NCBI GenBank assembly: GCA_022009835.1
Contig: CP091726.1
Span: 115,553-179,552 of the forward strand
From: Bacilli bacterium
GTDB taxonomy: Bacteria > Bacillota_I > Bacilli_A > RF39 > UBA660
DNA: 64,000 nucleotides
Direction: 5' to 3'
Below, in pieces: positions 14,501 to 23,500 of this stretch; positions within the stretch are counted from its first letter, which is position 1, and each line of letters opens with the position of its first letter. The position numbers are program-made.

Positions 14501-17500
14501 TTGATAAATGTGATGGTGATATTACTGATAAGGTTATAGTAACAGGTACTGTTGATACTAATAGAGTTGGAACTTACACTATTAACTATAAGGTAGTAGA
14601 TAATAGTGGTAATGAAACTTCAGTAGATAGAAAAATTACCGTCAGAGAAAGACCTAGTTATTATGGAAATGGTAATATTTATTTAACTTTTGATGATGGA
14701 CCTAGTTATTTGACAAAAGAAATTTTAGATATTTTAGATGAAGAAGATATTAAAGCTACTTTCTTTGTAACTAGTGGTGGTGAATATGTTAGGAGAGCCT
14801 ACAATAGTGGACACACAATTGCTTTACATACTTCTAGTCATAAATATAGTTATGTGTACTCTAGTGAAGAAAATTACTTTAATGATTTAAATACTGTTAG
14901 TGATAGTGTTTATAATTCTATTGGTATTAGATGTAAATTTATTAGATTTCCTGGTGGTAGTTCTAATACTATAAGTAGAAATTATAATAAAGGTATTATG
15001 TCTAGACTTGTTAATGCTGTTATTAATAAGGGATATGTATATTTTGATTGGAATGTCGATTCTAATGATGCAGGTGGTGATGGTAATAACAGTAATAAAA
15101 TATACAATAATGTTATAAATGGTTTATCTCATAATAAAACAAACATAGTACTTATGCATGATTCTGCCAGTCATAGGGGTACTGTGAATGCTTTAAGAGA
15201 CATTATTAGATATGGTAAAGATAATGGATATTCATTTAAAGCTATTACTAATGATACACCAGTAGTAAGACATGGAGTTAATAATTAAATAGTTGTATTT
15301 ACAACTATTTTTTTAGTTATGTTGTTGTAATTTTTTTGGTAATTTTTGTTATAATAGTGTTAGAAAGGATGGTTAGTATGATTAAGAAAAATAAATGAGT
15401 ACATTAATTTATCGATTATATTGTCAGTTTTATTTATGATAGTTGGAATACTACTTATAGTATGGCCTAAAAGCATCTCTTGATACTTTTTGCTTATGTT
15501 ATTGGTACTATTATGATTATCTATGGTATTTATAGTTTTTATAGATAGTTTTAGTATTAATCCTGCTCTTTGTTTATTCCAAATGACAAATAGTATTTTT
15601 ATCATTTTTTTACTTGGTATTTGTATATTTTTTTAAATCCTAGTATTTTTTTGAAAGTATTTTTACCAATTGTTTTTAGGTATTTTTCTTTATTATAAGT
15701 GGTGCATTTAGTTCTAGAATATCATTTATTATTAAAGATATTGATAATAGTTATATTCTATCTTTATTTACCTCTATCTTAATGATCATATGTGGTGTAG
15801 TATTAATTATTAATCCAGGAAATACTGCTCTTGTTATTACTACATTAATTGGTATTATTCTTATTGTATACTCTGTAAGTGCCATAGTTGATATGTTTGT
15901 ATTTAAATCAAGAGTAAAAGAAATAGATAAATACTTTAGTAAATTACTTAAATAATCCTATTAATTTAGGGTTATTTTTTTATGTAAAGTATTATGTAAA
16001 ATATTAGTATTTTCTTTATTATTATTTTTTATTATGTTATATTTATACTAGAAGGAGTGATAAGTATGGATGATAACATGAGAAATGCTTGGTTAGATAT
16101 GATATCTAAAGTTTATACTAATTTACATAATAGTGATAGAGTTCTTAAGGCTTCAAATGTATCTGATAAGAAAAGAGAAAGATTACTAAAATATTTTGAA
16201 AGACTTGAAGAACTACATAATAAGGTGTCTAAAACTAAAAGTGTTAATGGTGAAAAAAATTACTTAAAAAAATTTTTTTATTATGATTTATATGTTATCA
16301 AACCAGAAAACATACCTGATACTTACTTTCAAAACCAAGTTAGACTTGCTAGAGAAAGAGGTTATGGTAACATAGAATTAACTGAAGAAGATAAGATGCG
16401 AAAGACTGAAGAAGTTATTGATGACCAGAAGAAAACTCTAGATAAGTGGATTGAGTATTTTTTATATGATGAAGAAAGTAAATCTTATGAAATGTGGGAA
16501 AAAAATACTGGGTATTTCAAGGACTACAGAATTTAGGCAAATATGATAAGGAAACCGGTAAATTTAGTAAAAGAGATAAAAACAACAGTATATCCTTTTT
16601 CCTCCAGTAGAAAGAGAATATATTTTTACTACTTTAAAAATTAATGGAAGATTTTTCTTAAAGATAAAAAGCGAAGAAGATATTAAACAGGCTTTAAGTA
16701 CTGGCAATTTTTAAACTTTTATACGAGTATGTTATTAAGCAAAGCTTTTTAAAACGGAGAACATCAAAATAATAACAACGATGGTAAATGGATTAAATAT
16801 GAACAAGGAAGTGATTATAATATTTTAAGAGATTCACTTCAAGGCTATTATACTGGTTGGTGTACTGCTGCTGGGGAAATCTTTGCTAAGAGTCAGTTAA
16901 CAGGTGGTGACTTTTACGTTTATTACTCATTAGATAAGAATGGTGAAGCAAAAGTACCTAGAATTGCTATTAGAATGGATGGTAAAGATAAAATTGGAGA
17001 GATTAGAGGTATAGCAGATAATCAAAATATGGAACCTGAAATGATGCCTATTCTTGAAGAAAAAAATTTAAAAGAATTTCCTGATAAAGATAAATATCTA
17101 AAAAAAGAACATGATATGAAATTACTTACTTTAATTGATAAAAAGGTAAATAATAATATTGAACTTAATCTTGATGAACTTAAATTTTTATACGAATTAA
17201 ATAACAAAATTGAAGGATTTGGCTATGAAAAAGGATCCTAGAATAGGAGAAATTAAAAAGTAAAAAGAAATAAAAAGAAGAGATTATAGTCTTATATTTA
17301 ATGTTAAAGAAGAAGAGGTTGCTTTATCACAGGAAGAATGTCTAAATAATCCAGAAAAGTTTAAATTTTTTCGGGGTCGTATAAGTTTAGACTCTCTTAC
17401 TAGTGCTGAAGGACTTATTCTTCCTCAGTATGTTGCTGGTAATGTAGATTTAGACTCTCTTACTAGTGCTGAAGGGCTTGTTCTTCCCAAAAGTATTGGT

Positions 17501-20500: not shown

Positions 20501-23500
20501 TTTGATTTGAATAGACTATATTGTCCTTATAATATTAAGGAAGAAATAATGAATAATCCTGATAAATATTATATGGAACCTCCTACTGAAGAAGATAAAA
20601 AAAGGAATAAAAAGATAAACTTAAAATTGAAGACTATAGGCTTCAATTTTTTTCATTAAAAGACATTAAGCTTTAATGATAGTAAAGAGATTATAAGCTC
20701 TTTTACTAAACACTATAATATTTTTATATACATTTGTTTGATATTTTTTTATATTTTTCTATTTACTTGATATTAAATATATGATATACTTTAAATGTGA
20801 AATATGGAGGTATAAAAAAATGTTAGATTATATAATTATAGGACTACTTATTGTAGTAATTATCTTAGTTATTATAGCAATTAGTAAGAATGTTAATGAA
20901 GGAAAAAAATTACTGAAAAGACTTGGTAATTTAGAAACTACTACAGTTAAAGAGTTATCTAGTTTTCAAATAGATATAATGAAAAACAATGAATGATAAT
21001 TTTTAATGAATTAAATGAAAGAATGGAAAAAGAAACTTAGTCAAATTAATGATAAAGTTAATGAAAGATTAGATGATAATTTTGCTAAGACTAATAAAAC
21101 ATTTACTAATATATTAGAAAGATTATCTAGAATAGATGAAGCACAAAAAGAAAAATTGATACTTTATCTACTGATATTGTTTCTCTTCAAAGTATTTTTA
21201 ACTGATAAAAAAAGAGTCGTGGTATATTTGGTGAAATTAATCTTAAGCATATTCTTGTTAGTATATTTGGTGAAAGAAATGATAATGTATATAGACTTCA
21301 GTATACTTTTTCCTAATACCACTATTGCGGATGCAGTAATATTTGCTCCCGAGCCATTAGGTACTGTTGCTATTGATTCAAAGTTTCCTTTAGAACACTA
21401 TCAAAAAATGGTTGATAAGAATCTTTCTCCACTAGAAAGAACTGCTGCGGAAAAAGAATTTAAGGCTGATGTTAAGAAACATATTGATGCTATTAGTTCT
21501 AAATATATTATTCCTGGTATTACTTCAGATCAAGCTATTATGTTCTTACCTGCTGAGGCTTTATTCGCTGAAATTAATGCTTATCATAGTGATTTAGTTG
21601 AATATGCTCATAGAAAAAGAGTATGGATATGTTCTCCTACAACATTAATTAGTACATTTACTGTTATTGAAGTTCTTCTTAAGAATATGGAAAGAGATAA
21701 ATATACAAGTATTATTCATGATGAACTTAATAAGTTGGGTGTTGAATTTAGTAGATATAAAGATAGATGGGATAAGTTATCTAGAAGTATAGAAACTGTT
21801 AATAAAGATATTGAAAGTATTCATGTTACTACCGATAAGATTACTAAAAGATTTGATTCTATTAGTAGAGTAGAAATTAAAAAAATAATAACGAAATTGA
21901 GTAAGTAAAAAAACTCTTAATAATATCTATTTATTTGAATATGTTTAAATGAGGGATATTATGGTAAGAGTTTTTTCTTTTTACTTGGATTTGGTTTTTA
22001 TGGTTATTGGATGTAGTTTTATTATTTTTATATCTTAATTTAATGTCTATGGGGGTATAATTTTTTTGAATTATGTTAATTTTATTGTTAGAAGATTTGA
22101 ATGTTATTTTTAGTATTATCGGTCTTATTATGATGATTTTTATCAATGACTATTAAAGGAGAAGATAAGAATGAATTATATTTATGATATTGTACTTAAT
22201 TTTTAATAAGGAATATTATTCTTTTTTTATGAATGGAATAGAAAAAGATAATATTATTAATGTTAAGAAGATCCCTCTGTTTCTAGTAGATAATGAATGT
22301 TTTAATATTATTAAATATGATAATGTCTGTGTTAGTAAGGATTTTATTAATGTTATTAGAGATAAAAACTTATACTTATACAAGGAGTAAACTTGGTCCT
22401 TCTCTTCTTATTTCTAATAATAAAGAAGTAATAGCTATTATGTTTAATGAAAATGGTAACTTAATTAAAAAGAAGTAGTCTTACTCTTGATGAAGAAGAA
22501 GAGGTACTAGATGAAATTGTAAACAATGAAATATACAATATTCCTATTATTAAACATACTAAAGTTAAGAATGATAATGTTACTAGAAGTATTAGAGAAA
22601 AGAGAGACTTTCTCTTAAAATATATTAATAATGAGAAAAATGATATTAACTTAAAGTATTTATATTATGATTATTTTTGAGTTAGATGAAGATGATATTA
22701 AATATATTAAAGATAAGTTAATTAAAGAAATTAAGAATAATTGGAATAAAAAAATTTAATAATCTCTATGAAACAGTTAAGATATTTAGTAAGATTAAGA
22801 ATTAAATTTTTATTTATTTGTATAAAATCTTCTGCTGGTATACATAATTATAGTAGAATATTCGCAGATATTCACTTAAGAAAATATTTATTTATTTTCT
22901 TTTTTTTGATATACTTATAGTGGAGGTAACCTAATATGGATATATTTTTGTAAAATTATTAATAATGAAATACCATCATATACGATATATGAAGATGATG
23001 TTGTAAAAAGTATTTTTTTAGATGTTAATCCTCATAGTACTGGCCACTCTCTAATTGTACCTAAAGAACATTATCAAGATTTCTTTGATATTGATAAAGA
23101 AGTACTTAATCATGTTTTGGAAACTGCTAAGGTTATAGCAAATAGATTAAAAGAAAGACTAAATTGTGATGGTATTACTTTTGCTCAAAATAATGGTCTT
23201 GGTCAAGATGTTAAGCATTATCATTTGCATCTAATTCCTAAGTATCATAATGAGGAAAAGTTATCTATTGAAGAAGTATATAATAAATTAAAGTAGACAA
23301 ATGTCTATTTTTTTATATATGAAAAAACTATCCGAAGATAGTTTCTCTAATATAAATATTTTAATATAAGAAAGCATTTCCTAATATAATGGCAAGTAAG
23401 ATGTATAATACAATGACAATTAATAGACCATTATTACTTTTTATGACTGCAAGTGCTACTGCTAGAACTATTTCCAGACATTATAATGCACCTCCTTTAA

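Follow-up and report, generated by a model that had tools for sequence, protein, structure and literature searches.

Positions 15950-20710 of the 64,000-nucleotide stretch of contig CP091726.1 from the RF39-lineage bacterium analysed here (the window) hold two adjacent copies of a gene that we refer to as X. The duplication is real, and the two copies are probably intact and independently transcribed paralogues from a large unnamed protein family. Each protein would comprise an N-terminal domain of ~410 residues (the head), a β-solenoid of 21-residue repeats resembling those of FNIP and BspA proteins, and a C-terminal cap with a basic tail. With moderate confidence we interpret X as a soluble polymorphic recognition protein, in which the constant head serves as output, the variable solenoid provides specificity and the cap is conserved, encoded by one or two independently terminated genes that exchange sequence with each other.

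Layout and sequence quality of the tandem locus

Gapped DNA alignment of the units 15955-18620 and 18621-20660 shows a head-to-tail tandem duplication. The whole region 15950-20710 lies in an AT-rich window (GC ~25%). A reading made earlier from the window alone (the sequence-only reading) had described near-identical upstream regions, terminator-like hairpins, ribosome-binding sites (RBS) and ~1.25 kb of coding sequence, and the alignment bears this out. Near-identity runs from 15953/18619 via the upstream region, the RBS and the start codon into ~1.26 kb of coding sequence; the copies are 96.5% identical with gaps ignored, and identity is ~96% when the upstream region is taken together with these first 1.26 kb. 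Similarity is lost at 17335/19998, the collapse at the onset of the repeat array that had been noted before, and is regained in the common C-terminal tail, likewise seen earlier, over the last 150 nt (18470-18620 versus 20466-20618). The true starts are ATG 16066 in copy 1 and ATG 18734 in copy 2, the mechanically listed GTG starts not being the real ones. Both units contain a common hairpin with an AU-rich 11-bp stem followed by a U-run (dG of -10.5 and -12 kcal/mol, z-scores of -3.0 and -4.0), and a common stretch of ~90 nt separates this hairpin from the RBS AAGGAG. The AU-rich hairpins of both units were not picked up by a GC-based terminator scan. A promoter scan performed no better than chance, and no promoter is claimed. 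The features of the locus are as follows.

15950..15984, + strand: AU-rich hairpin with U-run, terminator-like, at the start of duplicated unit 1 and after the DUF308 gene (11-bp stem, dG -10.5, z -3.0)
15955..16065, + strand: duplicated upstream region, copy 1, with RBS AAGGAG at 16052-16057 (unit alignment)
16066..18623, + strand: paralogue 1 coding region, ~848 aa with homopolymer insertions removed, several open reading frames (ORFs) as given
16066..17330, + strand: paralogue 1 conserved N-terminal domain, ~410 aa, with the invariant motifs GWCTA, DFYVYY, PRIAIRM and EIRG
17375..18462, + strand: paralogue 1 array, 17 units of 63 bp (21 aa) (Tandem Repeats Finder)
17627..18383, + strand: three copies of a 252-bp (4-unit) higher-order block, units 5-8, 9-12 and 13-16 (mismatch matrix)
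18463..18623, + strand: paralogue 1 conserved C-terminal cap and basic tail (LPYGFDLNKLYC...NNPDKYYM...EEDKK...)
18615..18652, + strand: second hairpin with U-run, between the paralogues (dG -12 kcal/mol, z -4.0)
18621..18733, + strand: duplicated upstream region, copy 2, with RBS AAGGAG at 18720-18725 (unit alignment)
18734..20618, + strand: paralogue 2 coding region, an allele of the 619-aa type that is intact in the homologues P0002, P0006 and P0019 and has 19-20 homopolymer insertions here
18734..19993, + strand: paralogue 2 conserved N-terminal domain
20160..20490, + strand: paralogue 2 array of ~5-6 degenerate 21-aa units (2.8 copies at 20168-20341; P0019 sequence)
20491..20618, + strand: paralogue 2 conserved C-terminal cap and tail, stop TAA at 20616-20618 with one extra A removed
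20625..20654, + strand: hairpin (8-bp stem) with U7 after paralogue 2

Two AT-rich 23-bp tandem repeats flank the locus, one just after the polysaccharide deacetylase gene (15307-15355, 2.1 copies) and one just after RmuC (21969-22031, 2.7 copies).

Neither paralogue is an intact ORF in the window as given, a point that the sequence-only reading had overlooked. The longest ORF in the whole 64 kb is 577 aa, and the ORF list is fragmented throughout. A contig from a very close strain (L029) aligns over ~20.1 kb at ~96-97% identity with 202 gap openings, 170 of them in homopolymers and 185 representing extra bases in the window. This amounts to roughly one surplus homopolymer base for every 100 bp when compared to the close strain, measured over 5984-26660, and essentially every gene is broken. 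Within the first 1.3 kb of copy 1 there are ~15 indels that change the frame, and 19-20 were counted in copy 2, with +1 homopolymer insertions making up nearly all of them; the neighbouring genes contain frame-changing +1 insertions as well (DnaE 9, ValRS 7, Gmk 2, RmuC 10, PrsA 17, HPF 6). The rate in the paralogues, 1.1 indels per 100 bp, falls within the background range of 0.3-3 per 100 bp in neighbouring genes. Since every gene including DnaE and ValRS is affected at a similar rate, the frameshifts in both copies are, on this comparison, almost certainly sequencing errors rather than gene decay. A genome with DnaE and ValRS destroyed would not be viable, and thus the window is an unpolished, homopolymer-error-rich sequence whose genes are most likely intact.

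Both copies share an in-frame TAA (~17262/19925), which consists of three A4-to-A5 over-calls within 25 nt where intact homologues read EIKSKRNKRRDY. An alternative genetic code or a real nonsense codon at this site was ruled out, as the homologues read EIKSKRNKRRDY and all relatives are open under table 11. That the two copies are decaying pseudogenes is highly improbable. The broken frames are what such decay would give, but DnaE, ValRS, Gmk, HPF and other neighbours contain +1 homopolymer insertions just as densely, the common stop resolves into over-calls in both copies, and thousands of intact homologues are under purifying selection; we rejected the pseudogene reading on the per-gene indel rates. 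The window resembles an unpolished long-read assembly, and any ORF-based reading of it therefore needs frameshift correction. Further downstream, a stretch of ~12 kb (30000-42000) has a markedly positive AT skew (0.08-0.18), and its ORFs are broken up more than elsewhere; judged by eye from translations, the pieces there include look-alikes of a SecA C-terminus, a D-Ala-D-Ala ligase, an acyltransferase, a GNAT protein and an HTH protein.

Variable solenoid and conserved head

Tandem Repeats Finder detects 17.3 copies of a 63-bp unit at 17375-18462 in copy 1 (85% matches), in agreement with the ~17 units counted before. In copy 2 it detects 2.8 copies at 20168-20341, and ~5-6 degenerate units can be recognised by eye, rather than the ~6-7 proposed earlier. 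The 21-aa consensus is I-x-L-x-S-L-T-S-A-E/D-G-L-V-L-P-x-x-I/V-G-G-x, and proteins of the family carry 2-22 such units. Within the array of copy 1, where a 252-bp block occurs three times, the identity of units 9-11 with units 13-15 points to a recent block duplication. Position-wise entropy was computed from 2673 repeat units set in register. The fixed scaffold comprises L2, S4, L5, T6, S7, A8, G10, L11, V12, L13, P14, I/V17, G18, G19 and I21, with Leu, Ile or Val at positions 2, 5, 11, 13, 17 and 21, while entropy peaks at positions 20, 1 and 3, with 16 and 15 next. The AlphaFold2 (AF2) model shows short strands in each unit, at positions 16-17 and 21-1, that are linked by a G-G turn, with predicted local distance difference test scores (pLDDT) above 90 across the repeats. 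The variable residues therefore line one face of a hairpin along the rod.

The unit shows properties of a leucine-rich repeat (LRR), i.e. 21 residues, regular Leu/Ile spacing, a predicted solenoid and variable positions flanking the strands, and to this extent the description of the middle region as LRR-like stands. However, no LRR profile of Pfam or NCBIfam scores above threshold in the corrected paralogue 1 (SlrP is sub-threshold, with 15.9 bits against a cutoff of 1113), and a PDB profile search returned SlrP at a non-significant E of 0.3. Over a span of 155-180 aligned columns, close to that of the repeat region, the best structural matches are FNIP-repeat proteins of giant viruses in BFVD (E 0.0095-0.5, probability 0.57-1.0). 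An FNIP (PF05725) sequence profile matches one distant relative weakly and below cutoff (E 0.049), and the window's own repeats do not reach the Pfam thresholds for LRR or FNIP. As modelled, the repeats resemble an FNIP/BspA-type solenoid, and 'LRR-like' is an approximate term for them. Precomputed MoeA_C, HNH_5 and Glutaredoxin2_C labels on homologues with long arrays were sub-threshold on rescanning and look like repeat noise. In one relative (L021, 2039-3397) a 452-aa ORF directly upstream of the X gene consists solely of 21-aa repeats and the conserved C-terminal cap, twice over in one protein, with no head; the solenoid-plus-cap module can therefore exist alone.

Structure prediction and Foldseek searches, suggested by the sequence-only reading, were carried out, and with an alignment of 136 sequences the AF2 model is confident (pLDDT 94.3, predicted template modelling score 0.86). 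The head is mostly helical in this model, with a small sheet at residues 236-311 that carries the motifs GWCTA, DFYVYY, PRIAIRM and EIRG, all invariant across RF39-type members. In the wider family W261, C262, D278, F279, Y283, P294, R295, R299, E308, R310 and G311 are at least 90% conserved. Judging from its many conserved Arg, Asp, Glu and Cys residues, the head might be catalytic or might bind nucleic acid or phosphate. Neither single-sequence nor profile searches of Pfam, NCBIfam, PADLOC, PHROGs and PDB gave a significant match for the head, nor did its fold in PDB: Foldseek with the confident model found nothing there (best E 1.5). Against BFVD it retrieved, besides the giant-virus FNIP proteins, two proteins from uncultured phages (E 1.8e-8 and 4e-6) that are uncharacterised.

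Two candidate relationships of the head were rejected. Weak matches to MYST acetyltransferases appeared with a first AF2 model from a shallow alignment (pLDDT 78) and were gone with the confident model. A PcfJ-like assignment (PF14284) had BFVD probabilities of 0.12-0.23, only 1% in an hhalign comparison with pCF10 PcfJ, and no Pfam match. One homologue, P0156, is named by JGI as a 'predicted regulator of Ras-like GTPase activity (Roadblock/LC7/MglB family)', a name unsupported by Pfam and NCBIfam scans of related members.

The proteins lack a signal peptide and transmembrane (TM) segment according to a simple hydropathy test made with no dedicated predictor (maximum Kyte-Doolittle mean over 19 residues of 1.25, hydrophilic N-terminus), and no lipobox, TM anchor or sortase/LPXTG motif is present in the aligned members. 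The absence of an N-terminal signal, lipobox and TM segment had been noted at the outset as unusual for a Gram-positive-type genome. The absence holds, whereas the genome description does not fit, as the organism belongs to uncultured small-genome gut Bacilli from 'Tenericutes'-labelled metagenome-assembled genomes (MAGs) and is not a typical Gram-positive.

Strain variation and evolution of the family

With the frameshift-corrected N-terminal region as query, searches of gut metagenomes returned more than 3000 intact proteins, the best with 92-96% identity and none with a Pfam domain. Clustered at 50% identity, the family comprises 2311 clusters when E <1e-3 is required and 1068 when E <1e-30 is. 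Protein lengths fall into classes that are mostly 21 aa apart (550, 571, 592, 613, 634, 654 and 676, with 780 to 907 from a second search), while a separate 619-aa class matches the cassette of copy 2. Lengths of 820, 799, 778, 716 and 673 occur in one and the same 90%-identity cluster. Species-representative genomes place the family in uncultured human-gut MAGs labelled 'Tenericutes', 'Bacilli' and Firmicutes CAG:321 / Clostridium sp. CAG:302, among them a complete 1.34-Mb chromosome. Close strains share the gene order of the window (ValRS, TM2, DUF2752, DUF421, polysaccharide deacetylase, DUF308, X, RmuC), and the X slot is occupied in different ways:

L029-L034: one 619-aa gene
L035: one 613-aa gene
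L039: tandem pair, 676 + 612 aa
L042-L049: tandem pair, 571 + 820 aa (8 places, of 23 contigs with the 820-aa protein)

Tandem pairs are also found in other species (L008 and L012; L013 with a partial upstream copy). The locus is thus variable among strains, with one or two genes, different cassettes and length steps of 21 aa, and the duplication recurs in many independent short-read assemblies, so that neither of the outcomes named as refuting by the sequence-only reading, invariance of the locus and an artefactual duplication, is borne out. These observations bear on the concern that the duplication, as two strain alleles placed in tandem, or the 17-unit array, as a repeat expanded by a noisy long-read assembler, is an artefact of assembly. 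The window is clearly unpolished and error-rich, the identity of units 9-11 with 13-15 is a product that mis-assembly can give, and many close strains have a single gene. We nevertheless regard an artefact as very unlikely, given the tandem pairs at the same locus in short-read assemblies, arrays of 15-22 units that are common among intact homologues, and the contrast between the two copies, which disagree at ~3.5% of sites and join cleanly to unlike cassettes. Strains also vary at another spot, 2-3 kb downstream and between HIT and PrsA (L043 10185-11267; L047, L048 and L049 10364-12297), where some strains have extra ORFs including a 144-aa HTH_3 regulator and proteins of 144, 183, 98 and 83 aa with no assigned function.

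Between strains the flanking proteins are 97-100% identical, compared to 87-94% for the X head. The synonymous divergence (dS) of the head is 0.11-0.44 versus 0.03-0.14 for RmuC and DUF308 on the same contigs, and its ratio of nonsynonymous to synonymous divergence (dN/dS) is 0.07-0.22. By these measures the head is under purifying selection and its alleles are several-fold older than the surrounding chromosome (2-4 times by dS). Between genera the head is 55-80% identical, with a mean column identity of 78%, about like ValRS (68% in L017).

Comparison in 100-bp blocks reveals mosaic alleles. Copy 1 equals L029 over 300 bp and then shows 11-13% differences, and in the blocks where it departs from L029, it is L035 and L042b that copy 2 matches. 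Compared with each other, the window copies differ at 0-2 positions per 100 bp towards the 3' end of the head and at 11-14 elsewhere. As far as the blocks can tell, this is the pattern given by recombination or gene conversion among alleles and paralogues, and it agrees with the earlier proposal that the tandem paralogues are able to recombine.

The same head is found on other C-terminal modules. It is joined to TPR in P0291 and, above threshold, to BspA-type LRR_5 repeats in P0345 and P0356; in P0373 and P0380 it is joined to repeats that resemble DUF4116 by eye, with no profile test made. In two further proteins (P0271, L041 6001-10758; P0285) head and repeats form the C-terminal end of 1400-1585-aa proteins whose N-terminal 800-900 residues match no family; one such protein adjoins flagellar hook genes in a different bacterium.

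Two distant members bear the signature of diversity-generating retroelements (DGRs). In L040 the gene ends in a 3' repeat of 110 nt (9706-9815), of which a further copy lies 431 nt downstream (10137-10246); 24 of 25 mismatches between this variable and template repeat (VR and TR) fall at adenines of the downstream copy, and an RVT_1 reverse transcriptase adjoins. L051 has a 134-nt repeat pair with 27/27 mismatches at adenines, on a 2.5-kb contig too short to show a reverse transcriptase. By this signature both members, which have the same head as X, are DGR targets. DGR targets are ligand-binding proteins with a deliberately diversified binding site. The occurrence of the same head on such targets therefore provides independent support for the C-terminal part of the family as a specificity module for which diversification is an advantage. 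The window contains no reverse-transcriptase-like ORF, template repeat, second copy of either C-terminal region or silent donor cassette. The DGR reverse transcriptase of L040 (IMGVR_UViG_3300033402_000781, 11082-11225) contains an (AGAC)n microsatellite of ~25 units that reads as eight DRQT repeats inside the reverse transcriptase domain, either a real insertion or an assembly oddity.

Searches with tblastn of PLSDB and GenBank phages gave no matches, and IMG/VR a single match in 2.9 million viral contigs, and a plasmid or phage origin was rejected on these searches. In other genera the neighbours of X include rplS, infB/rbfA, rlmN and hemN-like genes, as named by eye from translations with no family search. 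PADLOC assigns no defence family to P0019 or P0035, and a literature search for RF39 together with LRR returned nothing relevant.

Possible functions and comparison with known systems

The proposal that a constant scaffold carries a diversifying recognition module is supported by the strain variation, by the mosaic alleles and paralogues, by the clustering of the most variable residues on one hairpin, and by the DGR relatives. In the mechanism that we envisage, the solenoid would be the specificity module, in which the scaffold S-L-T-S-A-E-G-L-V-L-P stays fixed and the hairpin residues x-x-V-G-G-x-I-x-L-x vary. The module could be re-made by unequal recombination between 63-bp units and 252-bp blocks, by exchange of whole cassettes, and by recombination or gene conversion between alleles and between tandem copies. 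The head would be the constant output part, catalytic or docking, kept by purifying selection. The solenoid may bind a fast-changing ligand and the protein presumably acts inside the cell, where the head would perform its task; the earlier labels 'recognition' and 'receptor/effector' are interpretive in the same sense.

Several points weigh against this interpretation. As the N-terminal domain has no match in Pfam, NCBIfam, PADLOC, PHROGs or PDB, its output role is read from the architecture. X has no conserved partner gene or operon and lies among housekeeping genes that differ between genera, which provide no functional context. The change in repeat number could be largely neutral slippage, and the intactness of both paralogues in the source genome is, judging from the error pattern, most likely rather than certain.

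A more specific form of the recognition reading, which we consider possible and put forward only tentatively, is an intracellular anti-invader sensor-effector. Here the solenoid would recognise a phage or mobile-element protein in the cytoplasm, the head would be the effector, and cassettes and tandem copies would widen the repertoire. The missing export signal, the hypervariable putative binding surface and the copy-number polymorphism are in line with this, as are alleles older than their flanks, which frequency-dependent selection predicts, DGR-targeted relatives on elements with recombinases and AAA ATPases, and structural relatives among uncultured-phage proteins. On the other hand, there is no PADLOC match and no NTPase or known effector domain, and the near absence from viral contigs (the one IMG/VR match, none in GenBank phages or plasmids) also speaks against it. 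Unlike patchy defence islands, the gene is apparently near-universal and single-locus in the clade, among housekeeping genes, with a head conserved about as well as ValRS.

Export by a non-classical route is unlikely in our judgement. X would then be a variable surface adhesin or antigen, with variation serving host or partner binding or immune evasion, as in BspA-type LRR proteins and size-variable proteins of mycoplasmas. The BspA/FNIP-like repeats, relatives with true LRR_5 modules, size variation by whole repeats, the conserved basic C-terminal tail and the gut-associated, host-dependent small-genome organism would all suit such a protein. However, no aligned member has a signal peptide, lipobox, TM segment or sortase motif, and the 410-residue head, rich in conserved polar and charged residues (Cys, Asp, Arg, Glu), resembles an enzyme or a docking domain rather than a stalk.

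Compared to known systems, tandem LRR paralogues with variable repeat number are not new. At the tandem LRR locus of Flavobacterium psychrophilum, described by Duchaud 2007 and re-found by Altae-Tran et al. 2020 (PMC10392669), paralogues have 2-14 LRRs of ~22 residues with few hypervariable positions, copy number differs between isolates, and arrays of up to 19 genes encode putative cell-surface proteins (PMC10392669). The window shares with it tandem paralogues at one locus, variable repeat number and copy-number differences, but has 1-2 genes, no signal peptide, a 410-residue orphan head and another repeat class.

DGR targets of the Mtd, TvpA and LdtA type have a constant N-terminal part and a diversified C-terminal ligand-binding part. 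The window proteins have the same arrangement, and two members with the same head pass the adenine-specific TR/VR test; in the window, however, variation arises by repeat and cassette recombination and not by mutagenic retrohoming. FNIP/BspA-type (TpLRR / LRR_5) solenoids likewise have repeats of ~21-23 residues and a predicted solenoid with short strands, but their partner domains differ, with F-boxes in giant viruses and signal peptides in BspA proteins. The NEL effectors IpaH, SspH and SlrP combine a bacterial-type short LRR region for specificity with a conserved, Cys-dependent catalytic domain; the arrangement proposed for X is similar, and its head likewise has an invariant cysteine. Among PDB and NCBIfam sequences none but SlrP matched even weakly (the non-significant E of 0.3 in PDB). 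Their domain order is reversed, however, and X has no NEL homology and no type III secretion context. Mycoplasma lipoproteins of the Vsa/Vlp type are size-variable and have signal peptides and low-complexity repeats. Common to both are a small-genome host-associated Bacilli/Mollicutes-like host and in-frame gain and loss of repeats between strains, whereas the window repeats form a predicted folded solenoid behind a large conserved globular domain.

What is new is the unnamed, widespread and structurally orphan head, the apparently cytoplasmic setting, and the combination of repeat-based and DGR-based diversification in one family. A more far-reaching idea, which we regard as doubtful, is that the ~410-residue head, with its ~2300 clusters at 50% identity, marks an undescribed and widespread class of 'programmable' receptors in the cytoplasm of Firmicutes/Bacilli. 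A new-fold output would then be combined with interchangeable binding modules into a new single-protein innate immune or self/non-self sensor. The modules would be diversified by repeat and cassette recombination with tandem paralogues, by DGR mutagenesis, and by swaps to TPR, BspA-LRR and DUF4116-like repeats.

Few points in this otherwise very conserved part of the chromosome are as polymorphic as the locus, and it is useful as a strain marker. It further cautions that intact genes can be concealed in long-read assemblies full of frameshifts. The small-genome uncultured gut Bacilli in which it resides are common in people and almost unstudied. The family also provides a solenoid scaffold that is compact, with units of 21 residues, and has a defined variable face. 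This large unnamed family has no structural relative in PDB, and its head is conserved like an aminoacyl-tRNA synthetase and carried on several diversifiable modules, including DGR-mutated ones; it therefore represents a concrete, testable case for a new recognition system, with a logic parallel to that of variable lymphocyte receptors, NLRs and DGR targets.

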